Source: Planctomycetota bacterium (GTDB lineage: Bacteria > Planctomycetota > SZUA-567). Taken from it: 64,000 bases of DNA. The position numbers and the translations under genes were made by a program. The DNA lies in the NCBI GenBank assembly GCA_031548195.1, contig JAVBRG010000042.1, positions 566-64,565 on the forward strand, read 5' to 3'. A model generated the notes under the pieces. The model did not search any database and had not been told where the DNA came from. It saw only the letters and a list, made by a program, of their open reading frames with translations. The number at the start of each line of letters is the position of its first letter. Position 1 is the first letter of the stretch. Positions 26,248 through 59,554 of the stretch are shown piece by piece.

Positions 26248-27798
26248 ATGCCGGAAATCATCCTGGAAGCCAGAAACATCACCAAACGTTTCGCCGGCAC
26301 CAAAGCCCTGGACGACGTGTCGGTCAGCCTGGAACGCGGGGAAATCCTCGCCCTTTTGGGCGAAAATGGGGCCGGCAAATCGACCCTGATGAAAATCGTC
26401 GCCGGCGCCTACCCGGCCGACGGCCACGAGGGGGAACTAATTGTCAACGGCCAGGTGAAACGCTTTCAATCCCCTTCCGACGCCGAGCGGGCCGGCATCG
26501 GCATGATTCACCAGGAAATCCTGGTCGAACCCGACATGAGCGTGGCCAAAAACATCATGCTGGGGCAATTTCCCCGTAAATTCCCGGGGCTGATCGATCA
26601 CCGCCGCTGCGAAGAGGAAGCCGCCCGCCACCTGGACGCCTTGGGCGTCGCCATCGACCCCAAGGCCATGGTGCGTAGCCTAGCCCCAAGTTACCGGCAA
26701 ATTGTCTGCATCGCCCGGGCCCTGTCCCGCAATCCCGCCGTGCTGATTCTCGACGAACCGACCTCCGCCCTCACCGAAGAGGAGACGAAACACCTCTTCG
26801 GCATCGTGCGCACCCTGAAGGAGCGAAATGTCTCCTGCATTTACATTTCCCACAAACTGAGCGAAGTTTTTGAAATCGCCGATCGCATCGTGGTCCTGCG
26901 TGACGGCCGGGTCGTCTCCGGCTACCAGCGGGGCGACTTTAAACCGGGGACCATCATCGCCGACATCGTCGGCAACCGGCAAATGGAGGCGGGGGATCTC
27001 CAGCGTCCGGAACCGGGCCGGGAACTCCTGGGCGTCCGCGGCCTCTCCATTCCCTCCCCCATTGAAAAAGGGGGCTACCTGCTCCGCGGGATTGACCTCA
27101 GCCTCCGGGCCGGGGAAATCCTCGGCCTGGTCGGGATTGTCGGATCCGGCCGGAGCGAACTCCTGCGGGCGGTTTTCGGGGTGCAGGGGTTTTCGGAGGG
27201 GACGGTCAGTATCGAGGGCCGGGAAACGCGCATCCATTCCCCCACCGAGGCCATGGCCAAAGGGGTTTGCCTCCTGACCGAGGACCGCAAGTACGACGGT
27301 TACGTCAAGACCATGTCGGTTCTGGAAAACATGACCCTGACCGTCTTCGGCCGCTTCGCCCGGCTCCTAATCAATCACGCGCGGGAGCGTGAGGCGGCAG
27401 GGTCGACCTCGGAGCGTCTACAGGTGAAGGCTCCGTCACTGGACGCGAACATCCTCTCCCTGTCCGGCGGCAATCAGCAGAAGGTGCTTCTGGCCAAACA
27501 GCTGATGGCGGAGCCGAAGGTGCTCCTGTTGGACGAACCGACCCGCGGCGTCGACGTCGGCACCAAGAAGGAATTTTACCGCATGATGCGGGATTTGACC
27601 CGGCAGGGGATGGGCATCGTCGTGGTGTCGTCGGAACTGCCGGAAATCATCGAGGTCTGCGACCGATCTGTGGTGCTGTCGGGCGGGCGGATCGTGGCCC
27701 GGCTGGAAAGGGGCGAAGCCGACGAACAGAAGCTGCTCCGCCTCGCCTCCGGGTTCAGCGCTCCGCAGCCGGTTTTGGCGACGAAGGGGGACGCGTGA
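26248..27798 (+). CDS. Sugar ABC ATP-binding protein (duplicated ATPase), system 3
   Basis: ATG at 26248 (MPEIILEARNITKRF). GENGAGKST, LSGGNQQK and LLDEPTRGVD motifs. Confidence 0.92.
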   Translation: MPEIILEARNITKRFAGTKALDDVSVSLERGEILALLGENGAGKSTLMKIVAGAYPADGHEGELIVNGQVKRFQSPSDAERAGIGMIHQEILVEPDMSVAKNIMLGQFPRKFPGLIDHRRCEEEAARHLDALGVAIDPKAMVRSLAPSYRQIVCIARALSRNPAVLILDEPTSALTEEETKHLFGIVRTLKERNVSCIYISHKLSEVFEIADRIVVLRDGRVVSGYQRGDFKPGTIIADIVGNRQMEAGDLQRPEPGRELLGVRGLSIPSPIEKGGYLLRGIDLSLRAGEILGLVGIVGSGRSELLRAVFGVQGFSEGTVSIEGRETRIHSPTEAMAKGVCLLTEDRKYDGYVKTMSVLENMTLTVFGRFARLLINHAREREAAGSTSERLQVKAPSLDANILSLSGGNQQKVLLAKQLMAEPKVLLLDEPTRGVDVGTKKEFYRMMRDLTRQGMGIVVVSSELPEIIEVCDRSVVLSGGRIVARLERGEADEQKLLRLASGFSAPQPVLATKGDA

Positions 27799-28823
27799 AC
27801 GGACGGGAACGTATCCAGGCCGCCCTGGACGGAAAGCTGGCGGACCAGGTGCCGGTGATGCTACATAACTTCCTCATGGCGGCGAAGGAAGCCGGTATAA
27901 GCCAGGCGGAATACCGTAGCCGGCCCGACCGGGCGGCCGCGGCGCATATCAGGGCGGTGGAGAAATACGCTTACGACGGAGTGGTGGTGGACATCGACAC
28001 GACCGCCCTGGCGGGGGCGATTGGGGTTGAGGTTGACGAACCGCCGGATCAGCCGGCGCATTGCCGGGCCGGGGGCTTATTGTCCGAGCTGGAGGATGTG
28101 GACGGTTTGAAACGGATTGACCTCCTCGCCAATGCCAAAATCGTGGCCTGGCTGGAGACGGCCCGGCGGCTGGCGGAGCATTTCCGGGGACAGGTGCATG
28201 TGCGGGGGAATTGCGATCAGGGACCGTTTTCCCTGGCTTGTCTGGTGAGGGGGACGGAAAATTTTCTGGCGGATTTGATGGACGAGGCGAACCATGCCGC
28301 CGCCGACCGGCTGATCGCCTATTGCGGCCGGGTGACCCGGGACTTTATCGCCTTGATGCTTGAGACCGGCGTGGATTCCGTTTCGAACGGCGACAGCATG
28401 GCCGGCCCGGCCCTGGTTTCCCCGGCCATTTACCGGCGCTTCGCCATGCGGCCGGAAAGTGAAGTCGCGGCGGCGGCCCGGGCCGGCGGCGGCAAATACC
28501 TGCTGCATGTCTGCGGCGACACCACGGCGATTCTCGACGATTTGTCCCGGACCGGCATCGATGGCCTGGAACTCGACTACCTCACCGATGTCGGCAAGGC
28601 GAAGGCGGCCCTGGCGGAGCGGATAACCTTTGTCGGGAACATCAATCCGGCGGGGGTTTTGGCGCATGGCGACGTCGGGACGGTACGCCGGGCGACGGAG
28701 GAATTGCTGGCCGTGTACGGCTCGTCGCCGCGATTCATCCTGAATGCCGGCTGCGCCATAACCGCCGACACCCCTTCGGAGAACCTCCGGACCATGGTCA
28801 GGGCGGCGCGGTCTTTCCGATAG
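27795..28823 (+). CDS. URO-D-family protein (uroporphyrinogen decarboxylase / MtaA-CmuA methyltransferase fold), paralogue 1
   Basis: 342 aa. The GTG start overlaps the ATPase stop (GTGA at 27795-27798), suggesting translational coupling. Family call made from overall similarity only (RIQAALDGK..DQVPV, HVCGDT). Confidence 0.7.
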   Translation: MNGRERIQAALDGKLADQVPVMLHNFLMAAKEAGISQAEYRSRPDRAAAAHIRAVEKYAYDGVVVDIDTTALAGAIGVEVDEPPDQPAHCRAGGLLSELEDVDGLKRIDLLANAKIVAWLETARRLAEHFRGQVHVRGNCDQGPFSLACLVRGTENFLADLMDEANHAAADRLIAYCGRVTRDFIALMLETGVDSVSNGDSMAGPALVSPAIYRRFAMRPESEVAAAARAGGGKYLLHVCGDTTAILDDLSRTGIDGLELDYLTDVGKAKAALAERITFVGNINPAGVLAHGDVGTVRRATEELLAVYGSSPRFILNAGCAITADTPSENLRTMVRAARSFR

Positions 28824-29735: not shown

Positions 29736-29849
29736 ACAGACATATTATCTATTGTCGTAATTTCCATCTGGTATCATAATACCCCCACTCAACAAATACA
29801 ATAGCTCCGGTAATTGCCGCCTGGCAAATCTTCAGCAGCAGGAGAAGCT

Positions 29850-30881
29850 ATGGAAAAACGTGAAGTAATCCGTCTGGTCCTTGAAGGCAAACCTCCCCCA
29901 TACGTACCCTGGCACTACAGCTTCACCGTGGAAATTCAGGAAACGCTGGAGAAACATTTCGGCGGCCCCGACGCGGTCGAAAAAGCCACCGAAAACCACA
30001 TCCTCGGCTTGGGCAGCGACATCGGTTTTTTCGATAATCTCGGCAACGACCGTTTTTGCGATGTCTTCGGCGTGGTCTGGAACCGCAGCGTCGACAAGGA
30101 TATCGGCATCGTAGAAAAAATCCTGCTGCCCGAGCCCACCCTGAACGGCTACACCTTCCCCAATCCCCGCGACCCGCGTTTCTTCGACCCCATCCCCGGC
30201 CTCATCGACAAATATCCCGACCGCTGGCGGGTCTTCCGCATCGGCTTTTCCCTGTACGAACGCGCCTGGACCCTCAGGGGCATGGAAGACCTGATGATGG
30301 ACTTCTACGAAAACCCCGATTTTGTCCGGGAACTCCTGAACGCCATCTGCGACTACAACCTGGCCCAGGTCGACGAAGCCCTCAAGTACGACATCGACGC
30401 CGTCTACTTCGGTGACGACTGGGGCATGCAGACCGGATTGCAGATGGGCCCGGCCTTGTGGCGGGAATTCATCCTGCCGGTCCTCAGGCGGATGTACGGC
30501 CGGGTCCAGGCCGCCGGCAAAATGGTGATGATCCATTCCTGCGGCAAAGTCGACGAACTCTTCGACGATTTGGTGGAAATCGGCCTGAACTGCTTCAATC
30601 CCTTCCAGCCCGAAGTGATGGACGTCTTCGCCTTGATGGATCGTTATCGCGGCCGCCTCGCCTTCCACGGCGGGTTATCCACCCAGAAGACCCTCCCCTA
30701 CGGCACGGTGGCCGAGGTGGCCGGGGAAACGGAACGCCTCCTGACGGCCGGAAAAAAGGGCGGTTACATTCTCGCCCCGGCCCACGCGGTGGAAGGGGAC
30801 GTGCCCCTCGGGAATATGCTGGAAGTCATCAATCTGGCCCGCAACCAGCCGACGTCGCCATGGCGGGGAAGCAGGGTGTGA
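29850..30881 (+). CDS. URO-D-family protein, paralogue 2
   Basis: ATG at 29850 after ggagaag. DDWGMQTGLQMGPALWREFILP..MIHSCGKV..FNPFQPEVMD is typical of the URO-D/MtaA fold. Confidence 0.72.
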   Translation: MEKREVIRLVLEGKPPPYVPWHYSFTVEIQETLEKHFGGPDAVEKATENHILGLGSDIGFFDNLGNDRFCDVFGVVWNRSVDKDIGIVEKILLPEPTLNGYTFPNPRDPRFFDPIPGLIDKYPDRWRVFRIGFSLYERAWTLRGMEDLMMDFYENPDFVRELLNAICDYNLAQVDEALKYDIDAVYFGDDWGMQTGLQMGPALWREFILPVLRRMYGRVQAAGKMVMIHSCGKVDELFDDLVEIGLNCFNPFQPEVMDVFALMDRYRGRLAFHGGLSTQKTLPYGTVAEVAGETERLLTAGKKGGYILAPAHAVEGDVPLGNMLEVINLARNQPTSPWRGSRV

Positions 30882-43234: not shown

Positions 43235-43362
43235 TGAAGTTTTGCAAAGTGACGATTTAACCGCCAATCGTCACTTTGCAAAAATCGTTTTTGCCCGAAT
43301 TTCCGGGGTTTTAGATTTGACAATATCGCCATTCGGCGGTTTGAATGGTGATTTTGCAAAAC
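43235..43362. repeat. ~130-bp composite intergenic repeat, copy 2
   Basis: ctgaagttttgcaaagtgacgatttaaccgccaatcgtcactttgcaaaaatcg...atatcgccattcggcggtttgaatggtgattttgcaaaac. An extra half-site caccactcaaaccgccgcatggcgatt lies at 43201-43227. Confidence 0.85.
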
Positions 43363-43409: not shown

Positions 43410-44618
43410 TCAGAACGACCACCCGCCCTCCAGCGACAAACTCTGTTCAAGCGCCGCGTCCGGCAACAACACCCCCCGGTAATGCAAACCCAGCCGGAAC
43501 CGGTTCCGAAACCGCGCCTCGATTCCGGCCGTCGCCGACAACGTACCGTCGGCCGTAAACGGCGACACCCGCGAAAACGCTCCGCCGCCCGCCGCCGCAT
43601 CGGCCGACCAATAACCTCCGCCCTTGAAATTGTACCCGTACTCCAAACCGGCCGAAGGATGCAATTCGCCCCAAGCCGGCGCGAGCGACCGCCGCGCCAC
43701 CACCCCGAATACGGCGGAGTACTGCCCCGCCTCGCCACCGGCGGCGGCGGCGCCGGGCGCCGTCGGCGGAGCCCAAGCGGGAAAACGCGAAAACACGCTT
43801 TCGAAACGGGTGAATGGCGAAATGGTGAAACTATTTTTCCCGAACTCGTAGCCGAGCGACACATAGCCGAAAAGCTGCTCCCCCCGTCCCCCCCCCGCCG
43901 GCGGCATGACGTTACCGTCCTCACGGCGGAGATCCTGGCAAAACACATTCCCCCCCGCCATGCCTTCCAAATATATACCCGGCTCAAATACATAAGAGGC
44001 ATACGCCGCCGCCGAAAGCGCCTCGCCCCCCAGTCTCCCGCCGGCGCCGACACGGTTCCAGTCCCGGGCGTAGCCCGCCGCGATGCCCGCCGTCACCCCG
44101 GCCCCAAACGCGTAATCCGCCCCGAAGGTCGTGCACAAATTATGCGTGTCCGCCTCGGCCCGGCCGCTGGCGCCAAAATCCGCCGCTCCGCCGTTCCACC
44201 TTGACCAGCGCGTCGGCGCCTTCGGCGCCGTCAGGGACGATCTCCCACCGGACAGGACAAAATCCTCCGCCTTCTGTTCCGGCGCCACCGCTCCCAGATG
44301 CGTCAAATTGATCGACTCCACCACGGCCGCCGGCGCCTCCCGGTTCAACCCCGAGCGCCGGATTTGCCAAACCCCCTGCGGCCGATTGATTCGCACCCCC
44401 AGCCAGTTTCTCCGGTTTCCACGATCCCCCTCGGTACGAATCGTCGCCAACCTTTCCACAATGCGCCCGGCCTGACCGCGGTAATAAAACTCGGCGCTCG
44501 CCGCCCGGGCGTCGCGGAGCGCCGCCGGATCGATATCCGAAACACCTTCAGCCGCCGGCAAAACCCGGACGCAACAGATCAAAAAAAAGCCCATGAACCA
44601 GCAAGCGAAGCCTGACAT
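43410..44618 (-). CDS. Autotransporter-type outer-membrane beta-barrel protein with short passenger
   Basis: Signal-like MSGFACWFMGFFLICCVRVLPAAEG. Alternating beta-strand pattern with C-terminal ...SLSLEGGWSF. Confidence 0.75.
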   Translation of the reverse strand: MSGFACWFMGFFLICCVRVLPAAEGVSDIDPAALRDARAASAEFYYRGQAGRIVERLATIRTEGDRGNRRNWLGVRINRPQGVWQIRRSGLNREAPAAVVESINLTHLGAVAPEQKAEDFVLSGGRSSLTAPKAPTRWSRWNGGAADFGASGRAEADTHNLCTTFGADYAFGAGVTAGIAAGYARDWNRVGAGGRLGGEALSAAAYASYVFEPGIYLEGMAGGNVFCQDLRREDGNVMPPAGGGRGEQLFGYVSLGYEFGKNSFTISPFTRFESVFSRFPAWAPPTAPGAAAAGGEAGQYSAVFGVVARRSLAPAWGELHPSAGLEYGYNFKGGGYWSADAAAGGGAFSRVSPFTADGTLSATAGIEARFRNRFRLGLHYRGVLLPDAALEQSLSLEGGWSF

Positions 44619-44728: not shown

Positions 44729-47700
44729 TTATGTGCCACTTGGCTTATCAGCCCGGTCATCACGAACGGGAATCCCGCGCCAACGCCGGCCGCTGTGCAA
44801 CGTCTCACCCCGCATGACCAGGGACAAATCCCCAACCACGGCGCCCTCCCCAACCCGTGAATCCGGCAACAAATATGCCGCCGGGCCAATGCTCGCGCGC
44901 GCCTCCACCGCCACCGCTCCGCATTCCGGCGTTTCCTCGACCCTCAGCCGCGCCAGCAGCGCCGCGCCGCCGGCCACATAAACCTCGTCCCCCAGGGAAA
45001 CCGCCTCCAAACCGGTGAAACGGGTCGACTCCAGGCAGCATCGCCTCCCCACCCGCATGCCAAGGAACCGCAACGGCCAAGTCACAAACGGCGTGCCCAA
45101 TAACGGCCGAAGGAAATAACCCTCGCCAAAGTTCTCGTACGCCCCCGTGAACATTGCTAGCCGCCCGGTCGCGCTGCGCCCCACGGACGCCTTCCCCTTG
45201 CAGCCCCGCCCCAATAACAGCCACTTGAGCAGGACGATTACCGCAAACGCCACAGCGGTCATCGCGAAACAGCTGAAGGGCAACGCCGCCGCAACCAGCC
45301 ACGGCCACACCTGCCACACCCTAATCATCTGTCCCAAGACCGCCGCCGCCATCGCCACAAACAGCAGATTCGGGATAAGTATGCAGAAGAGGTCCAGAGG
45401 ATAACGAAACGCGCCGCCGGTCGAAGCGAAGCGCCTTCCGCCGGAAGCCGCGGCGCCGGAAGGCCCCGCCGCCGCCTTCGGCCGGACCGGAGCGAAAATG
45501 GCCGGGGACCCGAACCAGCGCGAATCGTCCGTCGTTCCACCGTTTCCGGGCGGCTGCGAAAGGACGCCGATGCGGCAGCGTTTGCCGATTACCGAACCGG
45601 CGGGGATGACCGAACCTTGTCCCAGCCGCGCTCCGGCCCCCAAATGCACCTTGCCGACGGTGAAGTAGCCGTGCCCCACCCGCGGCGCACCCAGCATGAC
45701 CTCGGGATCGACCCGGCAATCCTCGCCGATGCTCAGGAGGGACGGCTGCACGCCCCGCACCGTCGCCACCTCCGCCCCCCGCCCCAATTCCGCCCCCAGC
45801 ATCCTGAACCACCAGCCCAGGTAAACGGTCGAAAAAACCGAACCAGCCACGGTCAGGCATTCCTGGTACACCGCGTTGAAGAGCCAATGCCGCACATAGA
45901 GCAAACTGTTGATGGACCAGCGCCCCTCGTCCGCAGCCGGTATCAGGTATCTCCTGAGGAGCGCCGCCTCAAGGCAAACCAGGGGAATGAAGGAAACGGC
46001 AATCAGGGGCACGGCGAGGACATACTGCCGGAGACTGTCGTACCAGTTTAAATAAGCGATTAGAAACAGGCCGGGATAATAGGGCAATAATCCCAGTAGC
46101 GGCAGCAACAGGGAAAGGACCAGCAGCGGCAGGGAATTGCCGAGCGACCAGCAGACGGGATTCTCCCTGGGCAGGCGGGTCGTCAACAAAACGGCGGGCG
46201 ATCCGGACCAGATTTCCAAACTGGGAATATGCCGCCGGGCGTCAAGGAGCGACAAATCCGCCAAAGTGGCTTCATCCGCCAGCGAGGCCCCCGGCCTCAC
46301 CACGGCGCGGTTCCCCACCACACAGCCGGAGCCGATTTTGACCGGCGCGAAAATCAGCCTGCCCCCTTCGACATAATGCCCGTCGACCAGGGCTTCCGCG
46401 CCGATGGCGGAGCCGTCGCCGATTTCAATCAGGTCGAAGGCGGCCAGATTGGCGCTCCCGATAAACACATTCCTGCCGATTTTCACGCCCAGGCAGCGGT
46501 AAAATAGGCACAAGGCGGGCGTCCCCGCCAAAAAACGGAGCGGCAGGGCGGCGAGGAAACGGCGCATGAACCAGAAACGCACATGGCGGCCGCTCCACAA
46601 GGGAAATTCCCCCGGCATGATCTTTCCCAGGACCAGCCACTTCAAGGCCACCGCCAAACCCAAGAGCACCGGTAGCGAGGCGATCTGGATGCCCAGCGCC
46701 GTCAGGGCCGAAAACCACACGGATTCGTTCTTCTCAAGGAGCAAATCGAAAACCAGAAACGACCCCAGCCATACCCAGGCGTGCACCGCCCAAACCACAG
46801 GCAAAAGAACCGCCTGCCAAACCCCCGCCCGGCGGTGACCGCTCTCCGTCGCCCGCAGGAATGGCCGGGGGGATTCCCTTCCGCCCGGTTCAGTTCCGGC
46901 TTCCGCCTTCGCGGCGTCGCTTCGCGCCGCCCCTGTTTCCGGAAACTCCTTCGCCAGTCCTTCCAAAGTGGGATGGCGGAAAAGGTCCGCCACCGACAAA
47001 CCGGCGAACTCCATGGATTCCCGCAGCCGCGACACGGCTTGGGCCGCTTTCGCCACGTCGCCGCCTAGGTCGAGGAAAAAATCGTCGTCGACGGAAATAT
47101 CCTTTCTGGCGAACAGTTCCGTCCACACCCGGTAAATCCGCTTCTCGCCGGGATTGCGCGGGGCGGTCATGGCCTTTCCGCCGCCAGCCAATGGCGCTGC
47201 CGGAGGGGGCAAAGCGGATCGGTCGACCGCGCCGGACAGGCGCATGGGCAACGCCGGCACGACGTCAAGCCAGGATGGAATCATATAAGCCGGAAGTCGA
47301 TTGGCCAGGCTTTGGACCACCAGCTTGCGGTTGAACTCGCACCCCCCGCCCGCGACCACGTAGGCGGCGAGTTGCTTCGCGTCCGGAGTCGGCGCCACCG
47401 CCGCCGCCAACACGCCGGGACAATGCAGCAAAGCCGCCTCGATTTCCGGCAGGTCGACGGCGAAGCCGCACAAGTCCACCCGGCTGTCACCCCATCCGGT
47501 CAGGACGATGTCCCCATACGGGTCGACCCGCGCCTGTTCGCCGGTCCGGTAGACGCGTTCAGGTCCCCCCGGCCGGGAAACATCCAGGTTCAGGAATTTC
47601 ACCCTCTCCAGTTCCTCACGGTTCCAGTATCCCCGCGCCACTCCAGGCCCACCGATGCAAAGCTCCCCGGTCTCCCCCGGCGGCAACGTTTGCAGATCGG

Positions 47701-48763
47701 TTCCGACTATGTAGACTTGGTAATCCGGCAGCGGCGCGCCGACATTGACCGGTGCGTTCGGAATTATTTCGCCGCAGGTGGCGGCGGGACCGGTTTCGCT
47801 GGAGCGATAGGAATTGAGGATGCGCCGCCCCGGCTGGTGCCAGCGGGCGGCGAGGACGGCGGGGCAGGGTTCGCCACCGAGGACAATGACGCGGAGAGTG
47901 GGAAGGTCGGGCTCGAGCATGGCGAGGTAAGTCGGGGCGCAGGAGAGAACCGTAATCCGCATCCGGGCAAGTTCCGCCGCGAAGCCGCTTCCGGCACCGG
48001 CCTTCTCCCCCGCCGCGACGACCAGGGTGGCTCCGTTGAGGAAAACCGGCCAAATCCCCCCGAATGCCGCGTCGGCCGCCGGAGAAAAACCCTGATAGAC
48101 GCGGTCGGCGTGGGTTATGCCGTAAACGGACCCGGCGGATATGGCTTGCCGGGCGAGCTGGCGGTGTTCCAGAAGGCAGCCGTGGGGCGGCTTATCGTCA
48201 CCGCCGGAAGCATGGTCGCGGGCATAAACGAGGCAGGCGAGCCGGCCCGGTTCGGCGCCGGTGTCGGAACGGTTCAGGCGGGACGAGGGTTGAGTGAAAT
48301 CAATGTCGGGGGTGAGAAACAGGCAGGGGGTTTCCAGCTTGTTTCCGACCGGACCGTCGTGGTGATGGTTCTTCGAGGCGATGAACAATTTCGCCCGGCA
48401 GTCGTCGAGGACGAAGGCGGCGTGCCGGTTTGAACAGGCGGAGTCCAAGAGCACGCAGACGGCGCCGGCCTTGAGGACGCCGAGAATGGCGACGTAGAGC
48501 CCGACGTCGCGGTCGAGCCGGATGACGACCTTGTCCTCGAGGCCGACACCCCGCGCGCATAGATGCCGGGCCAGGCGATTGGCCCGTTCCTCGAGCTGGC
48601 GGTAGGTGAGGGAGGCCGTGGCGGTCTCGACGGCGTTCCGGTTTGGATAACGATCCGCGGCGGCCTCGAAAATTTCGTGAAGGAGCGGATCCACCGCCGG
48701 ATCGCCGGCGGGGTGGGCGGCGGAGGTTCCCTGCGGAATTGCAGGTTGATCGCTGGTAGGCAT
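44729..48763 (-). CDS. Pls/PosA-type membrane NRPS-like protein (A-T module, TM segments and three hexapeptide-repeat domains) with degenerate A/T catalytic motifs
   Basis: A1 LTYRQLEERANRLA, A2 LKAGAVCVLLD, A6 GELCIGGPGVARGYW, A9 LPAYMIPS. A3 is LVYARDHASGGDDKPPHG, A10 is SGAVDR and the carrier motif is FFLDLGGDVAKA. Three LbH-like blocks (IGRNVFIGS..., LGRGAEVAT..., VGRRCCLES...) are separated by TM clusters. ATG at 48763. Confidence 0.8.
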   Translation of the reverse strand: MPTSDQPAIPQGTSAAHPAGDPAVDPLLHEIFEAAADRYPNRNAVETATASLTYRQLEERANRLARHLCARGVGLEDKVVIRLDRDVGLYVAILGVLKAGAVCVLLDSACSNRHAAFVLDDCRAKLFIASKNHHHDGPVGNKLETPCLFLTPDIDFTQPSSRLNRSDTGAEPGRLACLVYARDHASGGDDKPPHGCLLEHRQLARQAISAGSVYGITHADRVYQGFSPAADAAFGGIWPVFLNGATLVVAAGEKAGAGSGFAAELARMRITVLSCAPTYLAMLEPDLPTLRVIVLGGEPCPAVLAARWHQPGRRILNSYRSSETGPAATCGEIIPNAPVNVGAPLPDYQVYIVGTDLQTLPPGETGELCIGGPGVARGYWNREELERVKFLNLDVSRPGGPERVYRTGEQARVDPYGDIVLTGWGDSRVDLCGFAVDLPEIEAALLHCPGVLAAAVAPTPDAKQLAAYVVAGGGCEFNRKLVVQSLANRLPAYMIPSWLDVVPALPMRLSGAVDRSALPPPAAPLAGGGKAMTAPRNPGEKRIYRVWTELFARKDISVDDDFFLDLGGDVAKAAQAVSRLRESMEFAGLSVADLFRHPTLEGLAKEFPETGAARSDAAKAEAGTEPGGRESPRPFLRATESGHRRAGVWQAVLLPVVWAVHAWVWLGSFLVFDLLLEKNESVWFSALTALGIQIASLPVLLGLAVALKWLVLGKIMPGEFPLWSGRHVRFWFMRRFLAALPLRFLAGTPALCLFYRCLGVKIGRNVFIGSANLAAFDLIEIGDGSAIGAEALVDGHYVEGGRLIFAPVKIGSGCVVGNRAVVRPGASLADEATLADLSLLDARRHIPSLEIWSGSPAVLLTTRLPRENPVCWSLGNSLPLLVLSLLLPLLGLLPYYPGLFLIAYLNWYDSLRQYVLAVPLIAVSFIPLVCLEAALLRRYLIPAADEGRWSINSLLYVRHWLFNAVYQECLTVAGSVFSTVYLGWWFRMLGAELGRGAEVATVRGVQPSLLSIGEDCRVDPEVMLGAPRVGHGYFTVGKVHLGAGARLGQGSVIPAGSVIGKRCRIGVLSQPPGNGGTTDDSRWFGSPAIFAPVRPKAAAGPSGAAASGGRRFASTGGAFRYPLDLFCILIPNLLFVAMAAAVLGQMIRVWQVWPWLVAAALPFSCFAMTAVAFAVIVLLKWLLLGRGCKGKASVGRSATGRLAMFTGAYENFGEGYFLRPLLGTPFVTWPLRFLGMRVGRRCCLESTRFTGLEAVSLGDEVYVAGGAALLARLRVEETPECGAVAVEARASIGPAAYLLPDSRVGEGAVVGDLSLVMRGETLHSGRRWRGIPVRDDRADKPSGT

Positions 48764-48810
48764 GTTTGTTATCCTTGGACTGGTGCAAAGCGGCGATTGA
48801 CCCGCCAATG

Positions 48811-48846
48811 GTCATGAGGCGCATCTTTGTCATGAGGCGCATCTTT
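48811..48846. repeat. Perfect 18-bp tandem duplication (gtcatgaggcgcatcttt x2) in a divergent promoter region
   Basis: 48811-48828 equals 48829-48846. Preceded by a partial REP core gcaaagcggcgattgacccgccaatgg. Confidence 0.85.
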
Positions 48847-48916
48847 TCAGTATATTAGGAATAGGCGGCGGAAAACATAATTTACTTCAATCCGAGGACT
48901 GAAAAGGGGACCGGGC

Positions 48917-49918
48917 ATGGACATTCTTCTCATCGGCGGCACCGGCACCATCAGTTACTCCGTGGCCCGGCTGTTGGCGGGCAAAACCGGCAACCGGGTG
49001 TTTCTCCTGAACCGGGGGAACCATCCGGGCCGGATGGTGGAGGGGGCGGAAATTCTGCGGGCCGACGTGAGCCGCATCGGCGAGGTGCGGGAGGCGCTGG
49101 GCGGGCGGCGTTTCGACGTGGTGGCGGATTTTCTCGCCTATACGCCGGAGGACGCGCGGCGGGATCTTGAATTGTTCAAGGGACGGGTCGGCCAGTTTGT
49201 CTTCATCAGTTCCGCTTCGACCTACAAGAAACCCCTGACCGACTTTCCGGTGACGGAATCGACTCCGCAGAAAAATTCCTTCTGGGAATACTCCCGGCAG
49301 AAGATTGCCGCCGAACAGGTGTTCATGGATAGTTTTCGCCGCGACGATTTTCCGGTGACGCTGGTCCGCCCCAGCCACACCTACGACTACCGGAATTACC
49401 CCCTGGCCCTCCGGGGGAAGAAGCGCTCCTGGCAGACGATACTCCGCCTGCGGGAGGGGAAGCGGGTGGTGATACCGGGGGACGGAACCAGCTTGTGGAC
49501 GCTGACGCACGCGGACGATTTCGCGGTGGGTTTCGCAGGTTTACTGGGTAATCCCGGGGCGATTGGCCAAGCGATCAATCTGGTTTCCGACGACGTGGTG
49601 ACCTGGGACGCGGTGTATGAACGTTTGGCCGAGGTGCTGGGGGTGAAGCTGAGGGCGGTGCACGTGGCGTCGGAGGCGCTGGCGGGCATGGACGCGGCGC
49701 TGTACGGGGAACTGTTGGGGGACAAGGCGAATTCGCTATTTTTCGACAATGCGAAGCTGCGCCGTCTGGCGCCGGAATTCAGGACGACGATCCGCCTGCA
49801 CGCGGCGGCGCCGGAGATTCTCCAGACGATTGAGGGCGACGCCGATTTGCGTCAGCCGGATCCGGAGTGGGATGCGTGGCTGGAAAAGGTGCTGGCGAGG
49901 TTCGCGCCGGAGGAGTGA
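48917..49918 (+). CDS. NAD-dependent epimerase/dehydratase-family (SDR) protein
   Basis: N-terminal Rossmann motif MDILLIGGTGTISYSV. 333 aa. RBS-like ggggac upstream. Confidence 0.8.
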   Translation: MDILLIGGTGTISYSVARLLAGKTGNRVFLLNRGNHPGRMVEGAEILRADVSRIGEVREALGGRRFDVVADFLAYTPEDARRDLELFKGRVGQFVFISSASTYKKPLTDFPVTESTPQKNSFWEYSRQKIAAEQVFMDSFRRDDFPVTLVRPSHTYDYRNYPLALRGKKRSWQTILRLREGKRVVIPGDGTSLWTLTHADDFAVGFAGLLGNPGAIGQAINLVSDDVVTWDAVYERLAEVLGVKLRAVHVASEALAGMDAALYGELLGDKANSLFFDNAKLRRLAPEFRTTIRLHAAAPEILQTIEGDADLRQPDPEWDAWLEKVLARFAPEE

Positions 49919-53866: not shown

Positions 53867-56800
53867 TCACCGCAGGCGAATATTCCGGATCAACGACGTC
53901 GCCGGAGCCTTGCCGTCGCGATAGAGGAAAAATCCCGCCCGACCCGTGCGGTCCTTGCCGATCAATTCCCGCCCCGGTCCGCCGCCTGGTGACAACAGAC
54001 GGAAATCGCGGCCGGTCAGGGAAAATTCCAGCTTGTTCCAGCCGTTCTGCAATACCGTCGACGGCGTTTCGTAATCGACCCAGCCCTTCGGACTTTGCAC
54101 CGTGAACACCATGGACAATGCCGCCGTACCGACCCCGTCGTAGTATGCCTCAAGGGTTACCTGTCCGGCGCCGGATAAATCCTGCGTCGGCGAAAGCGTC
54201 CGGTACACGGCCACCCGGCCCTTCGCCGCCGCCTGCAAATCCATCTTCAAGGCCCGGCCGCCCTGCCCGTCCGATATGGCGCCAATCTTACCCGGGTCGC
54301 TCCAGGACGGCATGCGCCACTGGGCCGCCGTGTCCGGACCGAATTCGTCCCACAGCGCGCCGGCCCGCGCGGGGTCGCCGGCCAGGCGGTCCGGAATGAC
54401 TTCCCTCACCGGCTCGGCCCGGACTTCGCCCCCAAGCTTTTCCGGTTCGAGGACAATTCCCTCCTCCGCATTGCCGGACAGGAAATAATTCAGGGTCCGG
54501 CTTAAAAACCGCAACGGCCGCCGGCTGTCACGGGTGACCCCACCCTCGCGTCGCCAGTCCTGATAAGTCGCCACCGCCGCCAGTTTGCCACCCAGCCATA
54601 ACGCGTCCGCCTTCTCGCCCTCGCCCAGCTGGTGCTTGGCCGAAAGCGGTTCAACCTCACCACCCGCCGCCTTGGACAAACGTTCCAGCTGCCGCACCGT
54701 CCTGTCCCGATCCGGCGAGTCCAGCCAGATGTGCCCGCCGGATTGGAGATAAGCCGCGACCCGCTTCACCGCCGCGTCCGGCCAATCCGCCATTTCCTCC
54801 GGCGTCAAGAGGGCTAGCAGGGTGTCGGACAAATTGCCGTCCTCCGGCTTCACCCGCCGGCTCTCGACCGTAAGCCCCCGGGGAAGCCGCGCCTTGAGTC
54901 TACCGAACAAATCCTCGCCCGCGTCGTCCGACCGGCCGGCGAAATCGCCCAGCACCAATAGCAGGCTGTCCATGTCGACCGCGCTCGCCGCCGTCCCGAC
55001 GACGCGTTTGCGATCCCGGCGTTCCATCCGCTTCCAGTCGCTGTCGGATACCGGCAACGACACCACGTCCAGGCCGAACTTCCCGCCGCCGTCCCCGAGA
55101 ACGGAGCGTCCCAAACCCTGGCCGCCGTCCCCCTGCCGCCTGCCAATCCCGGCGCCGCCGAAGCCGCCGGCCAGATCGTCAAACCTGCCCTCGCCGACCC
55201 CGCGACCGCTGCCCCGTCCGGACCCGCCGGCGCCGCTGCCGCCGCCACCCTTGCCGCCGGTGCCGTTTCCGCCCCCGCCCCCATTGCCGCCGCCCCCCGG
55301 CCCGTCGCCGGCGTTGCCGCGACCGCCCCCGCCCGGACCGGCGCGATCACCCGTGCCGGTAGCGTCGCCGGAGCCGGTTCCATTGCCGGTCCCGGCCATC
55401 AAGCCCGGAACCTTGCCGCCGGGTTCGCCGCTGCCGCTGCCGGATTTATCGCCGATTCCCTGACGGTCGCCGCGACGTTGTCCGCCGCGGGGGCCCGCTT
55501 CGAGACCGGTACCGCCCTTCCCCGCCCGGGCAAAATCGGCACGCTCGCTGCCACCGCCTTCCCCAAAGGGATTGGGCGCCGCGCCGGTTCCTTCGCCGCC
55601 GTCGCCCAGAAGGGTCGTAAGCGCTTTGCCGGTCCCGTCCCGGTTCCCTTCGGGTCCGCCGGCTGCTCCGCCGGAGGGTTCGCTGTCAAAACGTTTTTCC
55701 TTGGCCTGATTGCCGCCGGAAGGCGCGCTTTTGGACCGGCTTTCCCCTTGTCCGGAGGCGTCGGAGGCGACGGCCCCGGACAGACTGGCGCCGGTTCCGC
55801 CGGGAATGCCTCCCTGCCGGTTCGGCATGCTGCGGGCTGCGCGGGGCGCTCCGCCCCGGCTCTGCCGCTCGGCGCCACGAACCAGGGCGAGTTCCGGCAG
55901 GTCCGTCCCCGATTCGCCGCGCGGATGCGAATCGTTCGTCGGAGCATTCAGGTACGACGCCGCTTCCGGCATCACCACCCCCTGCTTGGCGCCGAGATAA
56001 TCCGCTCCGACCGCCCGCGCTTCAGGCCGCAACTCTTCAATTCCCGGAGGCCCCTCCGCGTTGTGTTTCGGTTCGGCGGAGACGACTTTTTCGGCGTCGC
56101 GGATCGGATCGGAAATTTCCGCCCGGGGTTCCGGCTGGGTATCCGGGGTCTCGCGGGGAGTCCGGCGACGCCCCTGGGGATCGATACGGCGGACGGTGGG
56201 GTCCAGGGATACCTTTTCCACACCGCTGGCTTCGGCAAGCAACAATCCCTGTTCCGGCGACAAATTCTCGCGGGGGCGCTCACCGTCCGACCACTTCGCG
56301 CGGGCGCTCTCGGCCTGCTCGACAATGTCCGGCCGGGCTTCGTCGATTTGCCGCTCGGTTGCGTTCTCGGCGGGTTTTTCGCTGGGCGCGGCCGCCGAGG
56401 CGGGTTCGGCCATTTCCAGAAGTTCGGGGAATTCCTGTTCATCCGGCGCTTGTTCCAAGCGCTGATTTCGCTCGGGCATGCGCTCGCGGCGGCGCATATT
56501 CTTCTGCTCCGCCACTTCGTCCTGGAAGGACATCGCCGACGGCCGCAACGAATCCTGGGTCAACCGGAGATTTTCATTGGGAGCGCTGTCGGGGAGTTCG
56601 ACCGGGCGTTCGCTCACCAATGCCCCGCCCGACGTCGAGGACGCGGCGGAGGCCGACTCGGCTCCGGCGTCGGCGAAGGAAAGTTCCCCGGGGCTGGCGC
56701 TCTCGCCCCCTCCACTGTCGACGGATTCGCGGGCGCTGACCGCCGTGAGCATTTCCTGTTCGGCGGGACTGAATTCAATCACGCCGGACGCTTCGGGGTC

Positions 56801-59554
56801 GGCTTCGGAGAGACTGACGGTAATGCTGGGTTCGGCCCGGGCGACATCGGTGGAGGCGGCCCCGAGCATCAGGATGAAGGCGACGAGCAGCATTATATTG
56901 GCAATGGCCGAGGCCAAAAGGAATCGGGCCAGGGCGCTTTTTCCCAAGCGGTACAGAATGTAGGCAAGAAGCAACAGGAGAAGCAAAAGCAACAGCATGG
57001 CCGCCAGAATGTAAATCCACCAGGCGCTCCAAAAGCTGTCACCCTTCTTGGCCTTGCCGGGATCGGGGAACGTGAAATCGGCCGGTGCGGCGGGAGCTCC
57101 CGTCACCGGAGTGTCGTGGAACATTTCGGCGGTTTTGTCGAAGGGTGACTCCACTGGCTCCGGCAAGTCGCCGGGTTTTTCTTCCCAAAGATCCCGACCG
57201 GGCTCCAGTTCGTCCTTCAGGGGCGCGTGTGTAACACCCAGTTCCGGCGGCTTGGGGACGCCCTGCACCGGTGCCAGTTCCGCCGGCTCCGCCTCATACG
57301 CCTTCACCCGCCAGCGAAGAGGGATTGCCAAAGCGCCCGGCCCGGCGCTTAAACTCAGGATCCCGTTGTACTCGCCCTCGGCTTGGTTCATCGGGGCGGA
57401 AGCGGTGACCTCGAGGTCAAGGGTGCCCGAACCCGGTGACACTTCGCGATACGGATTCGCCAGCCGGAGATTATCGTTCCCCGCAACGCCGGCGGACAGC
57501 GGCGCCGCCTTATCCGCCTGGTAGGGAATTTTCAGGACGTGGCTGGTAAAGGTGCCGGGCGGGACCGTACCCAGATCCACCGGGTCGCCCCCGTCGAACC
57601 GCACCGTTCCCACCCGCACCCGCGCAGCTACACTATCGCCCATTTCCATGCCGTCGGAAATACTGAAGGCGCCCTGGTAATCGCCCGGGCGCGCCTCGGC
57701 GGGAATGGCGATTTCCAATTCCAGGGAACGCCGGCCGGGATTGAACACGAGGGCGGTGGACAACTCCTGCAGGCCAATCCCGGAGTCGTGCCAGGTCAGG
57801 TCGAGGGTCAGCTTCTGCGCCGAACGCGCGTCCAGGGCGATGTCCGCGAAGGCGGTCCCGGTTTCGCCGGGGAACAGCACGCCGAAGTCCAGGGCGTCGG
57901 CAATGCCGGCCCAGCCCGGCGGCGGATCCCGGGATTTAATGGCCAGACCCGAAGTTTGCCGGATGAATTCGCCCTGCTCCCAGGCCTCCCCCGAGGCGCG
58001 CAAGGTCAGGTCGAACTGGTCCGGAGCATCCGGCAATGCAATGTCAATGCCATACACGCCGTCGCCGGCGGCGCCGTCGCCGTGTCCGCCGTCGTCTAAA
58101 AGTTGTAGGCCGTCCGGCAAAACGCCCGGCACCGGCATAACCCACACCCGGGCGCCTCCGAGTGGACTGAAGCCCTCCGCCAGCGTGGCCGCGACGGCGA
58201 AGCGGCCGCCCCGCAGCTGGGGGGGGAACATGTCGAGAAAGAACTGGGTGTCGGCGGAAAGGGCCAGAACCGAAAGGCCCGGAGTCGCGCGTTCCCAGGT
58301 GAATTCCCATTCGCCCGGGTTCGGATTGGCTTGATGGATGTTTGTCGCCTTGCTATTCGTATCCAGGCCTTGGCCGGGGCCGGTCATGCCGACGCGGGCG
58401 CCGCCGTCGACCATGGCGGAAAGGCGCCGCACGGCGCCGTCCACGGGGAATTTGGCTACGCCGGCGGAGGCGTCGAGGATTTCCGTACGGAGGAGCTGGC
58501 GTTTGCCCAGTTCCGCCGCGAGGCGGGCGTAAATATCCGGCAGGTCCGCGTCCTTTGCCGCCTTGAAGTACATGCCGTCGGTGGCATCGGCCATCTCCTT
58601 CAGGAGATTGTGGTCGGTTTGTTCGCTGAGGCCGACGGCGAAGATGCGCACGCCCCGACGGACCGCCTCCAGATGCGTGTTGAGGTAATCCGACCCTTCG
58701 TTCTTGCCGTCGGTAAGGAAGACGATCACCGGCCGTCGCGAACCGCCCAGTTCCTTCAGCGCGGCTTCGAGGGGTTTGTCGAGGTCGGTCATGCCGTCAG
58801 CGCTGATGCCGTCGAGAACCTGGAGGAGTTTGTCGCCTTCGGCGAGAGGGAGCAGCGGTGTGTCGAGGGAGGCTTTGTGATTGAAGGTGACTAGGCCGAT
58901 GCGGCCGATGCCCCCGGATTCGCGGGCGGTTTCGATGAAGGATCGGGCGGCGGCGACCCGGAGTTTGTTGGGGTCGTTATGCAACATGCTGAGGCTGATG
59001 TCGACGACCAGGACGACGTCCACGAGTTCCGCCGCGTAGCGGGAGCTGCCCTCGGCCTCGCCTTCGGCGAGCGGGGTTCCGCCGGGGGCGTAAACCACCC
59101 GGACGGTCGCCGGCCCCTCGCCTTCCTGGGGAGGAACGGCCCGGGCGTCTACGAATACCTTGTAACCGTTGCGCCAAACATACAGGCCACCAGCCCGGTA
59201 GCGTTCCTGTTTCCCTTCAGCCGGCTTCAAGCCTTTCGGGTAGACGAAAACCTGGAAATCCCCCGGTCGCACCACCGTTTGCGGGCCGATGCGGTGGAGG
59301 GGAAGATTGAGGACCATCTTGACATTGGCCGGGTAACGGGGGTCCCCCAAATCCTGGGTGAGCAGGGCCGCGTGCAGCGGTTCGACCGTTTCCGCCGCCA
59401 GCGCTCCGGGCGTCGCCGCCAGGGTTGACCACAGTAAAACCAGTACGGCGGAAAATTCCGGCCAAAAAGCGACAGCCGGCCGGGCCGGGTGCTGCACGGC
59501 GCCGCCGGTCGGAATTTCGGCTTTGTGTTTTGGGGTGACCCGCATGTGCGTCAT
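53867..59554 (-). CDS. 1895-aa membrane protein: signal peptide, vWA domain, Ig-like region, TM hairpin, long acidic/Gly-rich linker, DUF4159-like domain, C-terminal beta-sandwich
   Basis: vWA MIDAS VVLVVDISLSM...TDG at ~58507-59023. TM pair FWSAWWIYILAAMLLLLLLLLLLAYILY / FLLASAIANIMLLVAFILMLGAA at ~56850-57040. The Gly-rich tract is GGGGNGGGGGNGTGGKGGGGSGAGG. DUF4159-like LLALLTPEEMADWPDAAVKRVAAYLQSGGHIWLDS. Confidence 0.8.
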   Translation of the reverse strand: MTHMRVTPKHKAEIPTGGAVQHPARPAVAFWPEFSAVLVLLWSTLAATPGALAAETVEPLHAALLTQDLGDPRYPANVKMVLNLPLHRIGPQTVVRPGDFQVFVYPKGLKPAEGKQERYRAGGLYVWRNGYKVFVDARAVPPQEGEGPATVRVVYAPGGTPLAEGEAEGSSRYAAELVDVVLVVDISLSMLHNDPNKLRVAAARSFIETARESGGIGRIGLVTFNHKASLDTPLLPLAEGDKLLQVLDGISADGMTDLDKPLEAALKELGGSRRPVIVFLTDGKNEGSDYLNTHLEAVRRGVRIFAVGLSEQTDHNLLKEMADATDGMYFKAAKDADLPDIYARLAAELGKRQLLRTEILDASAGVAKFPVDGAVRRLSAMVDGGARVGMTGPGQGLDTNSKATNIHQANPNPGEWEFTWERATPGLSVLALSADTQFFLDMFPPQLRGGRFAVAATLAEGFSPLGGARVWVMPVPGVLPDGLQLLDDGGHGDGAAGDGVYGIDIALPDAPDQFDLTLRASGEAWEQGEFIRQTSGLAIKSRDPPPGWAGIADALDFGVLFPGETGTAFADIALDARSAQKLTLDLTWHDSGIGLQELSTALVFNPGRRSLELEIAIPAEARPGDYQGAFSISDGMEMGDSVAARVRVGTVRFDGGDPVDLGTVPPGTFTSHVLKIPYQADKAAPLSAGVAGNDNLRLANPYREVSPGSGTLDLEVTASAPMNQAEGEYNGILSLSAGPGALAIPLRWRVKAYEAEPAELAPVQGVPKPPELGVTHAPLKDELEPGRDLWEEKPGDLPEPVESPFDKTAEMFHDTPVTGAPAAPADFTFPDPGKAKKGDSFWSAWWIYILAAMLLLLLLLLLLAYILYRLGKSALARFLLASAIANIMLLVAFILMLGAASTDVARAEPSITVSLSEADPEASGVIEFSPAEQEMLTAVSARESVDSGGGESASPGELSFADAGAESASAASSTSGGALVSERPVELPDSAPNENLRLTQDSLRPSAMSFQDEVAEQKNMRRRERMPERNQRLEQAPDEQEFPELLEMAEPASAAAPSEKPAENATERQIDEARPDIVEQAESARAKWSDGERPRENLSPEQGLLLAEASGVEKVSLDPTVRRIDPQGRRRTPRETPDTQPEPRAEISDPIRDAEKVVSAEPKHNAEGPPGIEELRPEARAVGADYLGAKQGVVMPEAASYLNAPTNDSHPRGESGTDLPELALVRGAERQSRGGAPRAARSMPNRQGGIPGGTGASLSGAVASDASGQGESRSKSAPSGGNQAKEKRFDSEPSGGAAGGPEGNRDGTGKALTTLLGDGGEGTGAAPNPFGEGGGSERADFARAGKGGTGLEAGPRGGQRRGDRQGIGDKSGSGSGEPGGKVPGLMAGTGNGTGSGDATGTGDRAGPGGGGRGNAGDGPGGGGNGGGGGNGTGGKGGGGSGAGGSGRGSGRGVGEGRFDDLAGGFGGAGIGRRQGDGGQGLGRSVLGDGGGKFGLDVVSLPVSDSDWKRMERRDRKRVVGTAASAVDMDSLLLVLGDFAGRSDDAGEDLFGRLKARLPRGLTVESRRVKPEDGNLSDTLLALLTPEEMADWPDAAVKRVAAYLQSGGHIWLDSPDRDRTVRQLERLSKAAGGEVEPLSAKHQLGEGEKADALWLGGKLAAVATYQDWRREGGVTRDSRRPLRFLSRTLNYFLSGNAEEGIVLEPEKLGGEVRAEPVREVIPDRLAGDPARAGALWDEFGPDTAAQWRMPSWSDPGKIGAISDGQGGRALKMDLQAAAKGRVAVYRTLSPTQDLSGAGQVTLEAYYDGVGTAALSMVFTVQSPKGWVDYETPSTVLQNGWNKLEFSLTGRDFRLLSPGGGPGRELIGKDRTGRAGFFLYRDGKAPATSLIRNIRLR

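Follow-up and report, generated by a model that had tools for sequence, protein, structure and literature searches.

The window analyzed here is a 64,000-nucleotide stretch of the Planctomycetota bacterium contig JAVBRG010000042.1 (positions 566–64,565 of the forward strand). At positions 44729–48763 of the window, on the minus strand, lies a gene for a protein of 1344 amino acids that belongs by descent to the Pls/PosA family of poly(amino acid) synthetases, whose products are antimicrobial chains. Judged by its sequence, this protein is a Pls/PosA-derived pseudoenzyme and not a synthetase. It lacks every functional hallmark of the family that can be checked in a sequence, it scores below the curated cutoffs, and an isopeptide-linked homopolymer is not predicted as its product. 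It is homologous to enzymes, has kept their fold, has lost the catalytic residues and has stayed under purifying selection after the loss; the inactivation is single and old, and no partner genes are found nearby. The protein is probably a selectively maintained pseudo-synthetase with a non-catalytic role at the membrane, as a scaffold, conduit or receptor. A pseudo-enzyme scaffold was one of two options offered in the first-pass annotation of the gene, and it fits the data.

The gene starts with ATG at 48763 and stops at 44729 (1344 codons and a stop codon), and the mechanical open reading frame reaches back to a TTG at 48808. According to Pfam, the protein contains AMP-binding (residues 32–380, E = 4e-60, profile positions 1–384 of 384), AMP-binding_C (440–511), PP-binding (544–605) and Hexapep domains, and the NCBIfam model TIGR02353 for the Pls/PosA C-terminal domain covers residues 649–1333. 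The N-terminal core of the adenylation (A) domain (residues 32–420, 47504–48670, PF00501) keeps the fold motifs and has lost the catalytic ones. It is followed by the A subdomain (residues 421–520, 47204–47503, PF13193), with degenerate motifs A8 and A10. The peptidyl carrier protein (PCP) domain (residues 544–605, 46949–47134, PF00550 at 29.9 bits) keeps its fold. The rest is the C-terminal membrane domain of Pls/PosA type (residues 649–1333, 44765–46819). Hydropathy places six membrane helices in three pairs, at residues ~648–712 (46628–46822), 875–937 (45953–46141) and 1123–1183 (45215–45397), in agreement with the model described below. All these features are on the minus strand.

The AlphaFold model of residues 626–1344, built with a 50-sequence alignment, has a predicted local distance difference test score of 87.2 and a predicted template modeling score of 0.90. 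In the model, three long helix pairs alternate with left-handed beta-helix segments, here called C1, C2 and C3. In Foldseek searches, these units match maltose, galactoside and serine acetyltransferases and AntD (E ~1e-4). The overall layout is thus an A domain, a carrier domain and three repeats of helix pair plus beta-helix unit, which is the architecture of Pls/PosA. Neither cysteine enrichment nor new metal-site signatures are seen, and the composition of the protein is within the family range.

Common descent with the Pls/PosA family is evident from matches to intact members with E = 0 and 40–47% identity over 97–98% of the length. The A-domain structure of Pls, 7wew, is a significant sequence match in phmmer searches, which find no match in the Protein Data Bank (PDB) beyond the A domain. 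Like Pls of Streptomyces albulus, an epsilon-poly-L-lysine synthetase, the window protein combines in one polypeptide an A domain, a carrier, six helices in three pairs and three tandem soluble units; this type of architecture has been described (PMC4668381; PMC10522769). With PosA, the delta-poly-L-ornithine synthetase of Acinetobacter baumannii, it shares the TIGR02353 "Pls/PosA family" model. The predicted C-terminal fold also appears the same as in PosA: bent helices form a pseudo-threefold bundle, on which three packed left-handed beta-helices sit as a cap. PosA is active and makes 7–12-mers (PMC10522769). Unlike Pls, the window protein has no recognizable catalytic residues in its A and carrier domains, its C2 and C3 motifs are erased and its scores are below the NCBIfam cutoffs. 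Its gene also differs in having no adjacent phosphopantetheinyl transferase (PPTase) gene, and in a chromosomal context which is housekeeping and not biosynthetic.

The catalytic positions were compared in a MAFFT alignment of the best 120 of ~4600 family members, of which 117 remain besides the window protein and its two orthologues, P0002 and P0003. Motifs were registered by this alignment and by the phmmer alignment to LgrA structures, and their coordinates were re-derived. At each of the A3, A4, A5, A7, A8, A10 and carrier His-Ser columns, the canonical residue is seen in 116–117 of the 117 other homologues. Within the best 120, replacement is confined to the window protein, P0002 and P0003. 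In 22 further loci bearing relatives, the sites are intact wherever the alignment covers them. Because the canonical residues are so uniform in both sets, chance or misalignment can be excluded as the source of the substitutions.

The A3 P-loop, YTSGTTG-RPKG in the family, corresponds to the remnant YARDHASGGDDKPPHG (48179–48226); its core TSGTTGxPKG has become ARDHASGGDDKPPHG, with an insertion. Neither the sequence nor the length of the replacement is the same across the three proteins. At the A4 motif, which contributes to the specificity pocket, FSPAADAAFG is found (48059–48088), with F230A and E235G and with D231 kept. The residue equivalent to E235 is Gly in all three proteins and Glu in 117/117 others. 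In PosA, the corresponding residues D217 and E221 were shown by mutagenesis to be indispensable for substrate activation (PMC10522769). The window protein has D231/G235 in place of this Asp/Glu pair, and no product is expected from it. A5 reads NSYRSSE (47795–47815) instead of N-x-YGPTE, with G320R common to the three proteins. A7 reads YRTGE (47537–47551) instead of YRTGD, by D409E. A8, GRxDxQVKLRGxRxELxEIE in the family, reads GWGDSRVDLCGFAVDLPEIE (47438–47497), with R424W, K430D, R432C and R435A. The A10 Lys is replaced by Ala in all three proteins (K512A, 47228–47230). In enzymes of the ANL superfamily, the A10 Lys and the P-loop are each needed for adenylation.

The carrier domain shows a similar loss. 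The Ser to which phosphopantetheine is attached is Val in the window protein (S570V, 47054–47056), Ala in P0002, Ser in P0003 and Ser in 117/117 others, and the preceding invariant His is replaced by Asp (H569D). Retained in the window protein are D231, the A5 Glu (E323), the A8 hinge Asp (D426) and the structural motifs A1, A6 and A9. The A2 region contains replacements of the family-invariant Y103 by Cys and P105 by Leu, and just downstream P111 by Ser and R114 by His. In the A core, 22–26 of 85 family-conserved columns are lost in the three proteins. The TIGR01733 score is 262 bits for the window protein and 262–284 for the three, below the cutoff of 317.4; intact relatives score 419–446.

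The first-pass annotation had recognized the architecture, the A3, A5, A7, A10 and carrier Ser substitutions and the resulting inability to run the textbook cycle of adenylation, thioester formation and condensation. Pfam, TIGR02353, hydropathy and AlphaFold agree on the former. As for the substitutions, profile-guided alignments place no Ser or Lys at the canonical positions, so the manual registration was right. The case against a working cycle is strengthened by the further losses in A4, the pocket Glu, A8, the carrier His and the C2 and C3 motifs. The statement that the structural A motifs are intact holds for A1, A6 and A9, not for A2.

The C-terminal domain is also degraded. Its TIGR02353 score is 398.1 bits for the window protein, 400.3 for P0003 and 423.1 for P0002, against a cutoff of 423.1 and 541–640 bits for five intact relatives, i.e., a deficit of about 120–240 bits for the three proteins. 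The window protein is thus below the family cutoff. P0002 scores exactly the cutoff and would be named automatically as a Pls/PosA synthetase; the window protein and P0003 would not. Conservation of at least 93% among the 117 intact homologues marks 101 columns of the C-terminal domain, and 20–27 of these are lost in the three proteins, a proportion like that in the A core. The first repeat (helices 1–2 and C1) is nearly untouched, and the third is most affected.

Two motifs can be followed in particular. The family motif of C2, G-x-R-x-F-x-G-N-S (R in 110/117, F in 117/117 and N in 107/117), is left as GAGARLGQG (45614–45640). That of C3, N-x5-QTHLFEDRVMK (H in 106/117; L, F and R in 116/117), is the best-conserved polar motif of the whole C-terminal domain and is left as AGGAALLARLRVEETPE (44924–44974). 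In the three proteins it reads ARLRVEETPE, TRLAVDANVF and ANMDGEGNLT, that is, it is erased and drifting. In the further loci, both motifs are intact where covered. A relative-rate comparison with two outgroup sets gives an identity drop in the three proteins of 15–19 points for C3 and 7–11 for the A-PCP part; it is mild for C2 and 0–3.5 for C1.

The profile of the intact C3 unit matches gamma-carbonic-anhydrase-like proteins and hexapeptide transferases among PDB sequences (3ixc, E = 9e-9). The part of the beta-helix where the C3 motif sits is aligned with the active site of those proteins, but the His of the family does not fall exactly on their active-site His, and the match is no more than suggestive. 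We infer from conservation and from the analogy to hexapeptide transferases that the C2 and C3 motifs, as defined in sampled relatives and not in Pls and PosA themselves, may be catalytic. For the polymerization domain of Pls/PosA, neither a solved structure nor a defined active site has been reported (PMC10522769), and a literature search found no structure paper on it.

Among ~5.8 billion sequence clusters, only P0002 (75%) and P0003 (65%) exceed 47% identity to the window protein. P0002 (L001:10001–13987) is from a Planctomycetota bacterium metagenome-assembled genome, and P0003 is from another NCBI assembly (L002). The first-pass annotation had proposed a survey of orthologues for the same substitutions; the two orthologues share the dead state, and no decaying gene is seen. 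The derived states F230A, E235G, G320R, K512A and H569D are common to all three. In a neighbor-joining tree, the three dead proteins form one clade, sister to the intact P0004–P0009. The stem of the dead clade is 0.32 vs. 0.03 substitutions per site, ten times longer, and its root-to-tip distances are ~1.7-fold greater. The presence of the same derived residues in all three sequences implies that the inactivation occurred once, in the common ancestor of a small clade of Planctomycetota.

Further searches brought no new members of the dead clade. A metagenome scan with the single protein found none, one with the three-sequence alignment found only intact-type relatives of 33–38% identity, and a scan of the genome collection found only the contig of P0002. 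In a search of representatives with a profile of the dead A-PCP part, the top 150 matches are giant multi-module nonribosomal peptide synthetases (NRPSs), whose summed scores swamp single-module proteins.

The gene has been kept by selection. In codon alignments of the three genes, the ratio of nonsynonymous to synonymous substitution rates (dN/dS) against the two orthologues is 0.25–0.28 overall. By region, it is 0.29–0.34 for the A core (95% confidence interval 0.22–0.44), 0.17–0.18 for the A subdomain, 0.16–0.23 for the carrier, 0.15–0.17 for C1, 0.16–0.25 for C2 and 0.35–0.41 for C3. The bootstrap 95% upper bounds are at most 0.58 in every domain and exclude 1. The most conserved parts are C1, C2 and helices 1–4, with 72–85% identity and dN/dS of 0.15–0.25. 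The protein is 76% and 67% identical to its orthologues, like the product of the adjacent HI0933-type flavoprotein gene (78% and 66%). Neighboring genes in the same genomes show dN/dS of 0.045–0.29, with polyphosphate kinase at 0.045 and isoamylase at 0.056.

Synonymous divergence (dS) between the three lineages is 0.6–0.9, and all three frames of ~1300 codons are open. As the lineages are this divergent, the dead protein must have persisted over a long period. Neutral simulation at 0.1–0.6 substitutions per site produces 10–40 stop codons, and 0/2000 frames remain open. A pseudogene is rejected on these grounds, with dN/dS well below 1 and open frames in three genomes; the decay that the first-pass annotation considered a possible refutation is not seen.

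Based on these facts, the history of the protein can be sketched. The ancestor would be a single-module homopoly(amino acid) synthetase of Pls/PosA type, and the present product an inner-membrane protein. Activation of an amino acid with ATP and thioester loading on the carrier would be disabled, and very probably also the polymerizing acyl transfer in the C-terminal domain. The one-time inactivation would have been followed by a burst of change in the A-PCP part and the third C-terminal repeat, and then by purifying selection on the whole protein. From the pattern of constraint, two functional surfaces may be proposed. Helices 1–4 with the C1 and C2 units were plausibly the acceptor or polymer-handling half of the ancestor, and would now be a membrane scaffold, conduit or receptor. 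The A subdomain and the carrier domain would persist as a folded cytoplasmic module for interaction. The retained role would be non-catalytic and related to the envelope, with the protein making nothing and acting by binding.

A more specific version can be speculated upon, with little confidence. In a lineage of Planctomycetota, a whole single-module polymerase of NRPS type might have been exapted as a non-catalytic envelope protein, in which the helix bundle with C1 and C2 serves as a conduit, anchor or receptor, maybe for a polycationic polymer. It could work with the apparently passenger-less outer-membrane barrel encoded next to it, probably on the same transcript, and the dead A-PCP part could be a cytoplasmic adaptor.

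Several facts weigh against a maintained non-catalytic protein. In P0003, both the carrier Ser and the A7 Asp are still present. The clade comprises no more than three sequences, each taken from a metagenome-assembled genome and each known as sequence alone. The dN/dS of the gene lies toward the top of the local values, above all in C3, which indicates that parts are weakly constrained. The case for catalytic C2 and C3 motifs is built on conservation and on the hexapeptide-transferase analogy. No positive clue points to any specific non-catalytic function, and the search for paralogues and loading enzymes covered the window and the two orthologous loci.

Among other explanations, the one that survives best, which we still consider unlikely, is that the protein has no catalysis of its own and works together with an intact Pls/PosA paralogue encoded at another place in the genome, as an allosteric regulator, a subunit of a hetero-oligomer or an assembly factor. 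Many pseudoenzymes act on their own active relatives. The kept fold and the conserved surfaces of the A subdomain, PCP, C1 and C2 suit a partner-binding pseudoenzyme. The family has a wide distribution, and its named members occur in several phyla, among them Planctomycetota (Pirellulales). However, no paralogue is present in the window or the orthologous loci, and the nearest intact relatives, only 43–47% identical, are encoded on unrelated contigs, and one of their genes apparently travels with a mobile element. P0022, an intact family member considered as a paralogue from the same genome, belongs to an unrelated assembly.

Slightly less probable again is a C-terminal membrane domain which is still an acyltransferase or polymerase. 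Activated monomers would then be supplied in trans by a stand-alone pair of A and thiolation (T) domains, aminoacyl-tRNA or acyl-CoA, with the dead A-PCP part as a docking platform. The high conservation of C1, C2 and helices 1–4 and the confident prediction of the C-terminal fold would be compatible with this, as would the carrier Ser of P0003. There is a fungal precedent in SidD/Nps6, where a T domain is loaded by the A domain of another module (PMC10192304). However, with Val or Ala at the carrier Ser, loading of the carrier in trans is impossible in two of the three proteins. The C3 QTHLFEDRVMK and C2 GRxFxGN motifs are erased and not re-fixed, and the TIGR02353 deficit points the same way. 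Genes for adenylating enzymes, carriers, PPTases or other suppliers of a donor are found neither in the 64 kb window nor in the two orthologous loci. The use of trans-supplied monomers through the C-terminal domains, the other option of the first-pass annotation, is therefore disfavored by the loss of the C2 and C3 motifs, the low TIGR02353 score and the lack of a partner gene in the window.

A gene on its way to loss, that is, a recently inactivated synthetase whose frame is unbroken so far, is very improbable. Its dN/dS, highest in C3, is above those of polyphosphate kinase and isoamylase, one genome has a decayed copy of the adjacent barrel gene, and the P-loop and C3 remnants drift freely. 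Against this, the dead state is older than the split of the three lineages, the simulated neutral frames are all broken, every domain has an upper bound of dN/dS below 1, several clear neighbor genes evolve at similar dN/dS (0.19–0.29), and a ribosome-binding-like site is conserved upstream of the gene. Hardly credible at all is an active synthetase with unconventional residues in place of the canonical ones: the alpha-amino-binding D231, E323, D426 and motifs A1, A6 and A9 are retained and the A7 change from Asp to Glu is conservative, but the P-loop, the A5 Gly-Pro-Thr, three basic residues of A8, the A10 Lys, the side-chain-binding Glu and the carrier Ser, near-invariant in relatives and in the case of A10 Lys and P-loop each required for adenylation in the superfamily, are jointly lost, and the variable substitute of the P-loop shows that no new loop has been fixed.

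The pseudo-synthetase can be compared with its intact sister group. P0004–P0009 are uncharacterized, 43–47% identical to the window protein, and have the same length and architecture. They differ in keeping every catalytic position, with 622–640 bits for TIGR02353 and 419–425 for TIGR01733. Their genes are linked to neither barrel nor short-chain dehydrogenase/reductase (SDR) genes, and a PPTase gene is immediately downstream of P0008. In total, a PPTase gene adjoins 4 of ~20 intact loci, and the enzyme is fused in 2 listed proteins. The locus of P0008 (L004:759–12691) adjoins relaxase, integrase, AAA_25, HicB and HigB toxin-antitoxin genes, and is apparently on a mobile element. At the locus of P0022 (L037:213–9888), the intact gene is followed by genes for an extracytoplasmic function (ECF) sigma factor, a zf-HC2 anti-sigma-like protein, an outer-membrane efflux protein (OEP) and a MacB-type ATP-binding cassette (ABC) transporter. 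This neighborhood looks like a dedicated module for regulation and export of a polymer.

Inactive A domains are already known inside active NRPSs. The "dA" domains of SidD/Nps6 (PMC10192304) resemble the window A domain as inactive A domains retained in an NRPS-type protein. They differ in being truncated by ~290 residues, and they are part of an active enzyme whose neighboring carrier is functional and loaded by another A domain. The window A domain is full length and inactivated by point substitutions, and the carrier and the downstream domain are dead too. No description of a Pls-family member with all stages dead yet conserved was found in the literature.

Hexapeptide acyltransferases and gamma-carbonic-anhydrase-like proteins are similar to the C-terminal units in fold and profile. 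They are soluble homotrimers or separate subunits, unlike the window protein, in which three non-identical beta-helices are interleaved with helices in one chain and fused to an NRPS loading module. The gamma-carbonic-anhydrase-like subunits of mitochondrial complex I are among the structure and profile matches. These subunits are catalytically degenerate beta-helix trimers serving as structural parts of a membrane complex, and are a useful analogy for the pseudo-synthetase.

The dead clade can be regarded as a natural experiment, in which the loading module and the C2 and C3 motifs decayed together and C1 and the first four helices did not. The joint decay nominates residues to mutate in active enzymes and suggests a division of labor between the pseudo-repeats. 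If the speculation on exaptation is true, the co-decay of the A, T, C3 and C2 motifs would map the active site of the polymerization domain of the Pls family. To our knowledge, an entire multi-step synthetase that is dead yet kept by selection is rare in bacteria, and learning the role of this one would reveal a non-biosynthetic use of the Pls/PosA membrane fold. There is also a hazard for annotation. Genome-mining tools guided by domain architecture would list it among the cationic-polymer synthetases.

The gene has two neighbors specific to the dead clade. Downstream, 110 bp away on the same strand, is a gene for an autotransporter-type outer-membrane barrel (43410–44618; PF03797, E = 3e-23). 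TIGR01414 (31.2 bits; cutoff 16) likewise recognizes the C-terminal 12-strand barrel domain, as in type Va autotransporters. Upstream is a divergent gene for an SDR of the NAD-dependent epimerase/dehydratase type (48917–49918, plus strand; PF01370), syntenic in all three genomes. Both were placed correctly in the first-pass annotation. NCBIfam gives only generic matches for these two genes. Homologues of the barrel and SDR genes are seen beside the dead clade only, and beside none of the loci of intact relatives.

No terminator-like site is found between the pseudo-synthetase and barrel genes, and the two are probably co-transcribed. A perfect palindrome with an 18-bp stem, TTTTGCAAAGTGACGATT(N8)AATCGTCACTTTGCAAAA, flanked by T and A runs, lies at 43240–43283 between the barrel gene and the HI0933-type flavoprotein gene. 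Based on the consensus match only, this hairpin is a candidate terminator of the two-gene unit, and it could be bidirectional. The barrel protein has a signal-peptide-like N-terminus followed by only ~110 residues without a Pfam match and then the barrel, and may be of the autotransporter type without a passenger. Its N-terminal segment holds a strongly conserved helix-like stretch, RDA(K/R)AASAEFY(F/Y)RGQAGRI-ERLA. Its dN/dS against the L002 orthologue is 0.27.

In the genome of P0002, the barrel gene has decayed while the synthetase-like gene is intact. The remnant (L001:14016–14447) is ~1 kb shorter. A 91-codon open reading frame retains the signal peptide together with the first conserved helix; beyond these, the sequence is deleted and frameshifted, with matches in a second reading frame. 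The linkage to the barrel, which had been proposed for survey, is thus specific to the clade but not conserved in it. Since the barrel could be lost beside an intact synthetase-like gene, it is at most a dispensable partner, and the linkage may be mere local synteny. In the genome of P0003, a gene for a 105-aa STAS-domain protein (anti-sigma-antagonist-like; L002:9752–10069) lies between the synthetase-like and barrel genes. A 4-nt overlap with the upstream stop codon hints at translational coupling of this gene, which is absent from the window and L001.

The divergent intergenic region (48764–48916) was aligned with the two orthologous regions, L001:9888–10000 and L002:5619–5831. All three genomes have the ribosome-binding-like site AAGGA without change, 7–9 nt before the start codon. 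A conserved block, TTTTCCGCCGCC...TAATATAC, also given as TTTTCCGCCGCC(N)TTCCTAATATAC, is present in the region and is apparently duplicated in L002. By their conservation, the block and AAGGA are possible shared promoter or operator elements.

The 64 kb window as a whole is core chromosome, syntenic with the P0002 locus. It contains genes for a GH57 branching enzyme, TsaD, RecG, a P-type ATPase, sugar ABC transporters, LptF/G, thiamine metabolism, polyphosphate kinase, a Ser/Thr kinase, ComF, the HI0933-type flavoprotein, isoamylase and HEAT and VWA proteins. Rfam and tRNA scans of the window gave nothing. The 1895-aa product of a minus-strand gene (53867–59554) has a single VWA domain, at its N-terminus, as its sole Pfam match; at the syntenic position, L001 has a gene for ~1904 amino acids. 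Two paralogues of the uroporphyrinogen-decarboxylase (URO-D) family on the plus strand (27795–28823 and 29814–30881) flank a gene for an AraC-type regulator and adjoin sugar-type ABC transporter genes, and they may be methyltransferase-like proteins rather than enzymes of haem biosynthesis.

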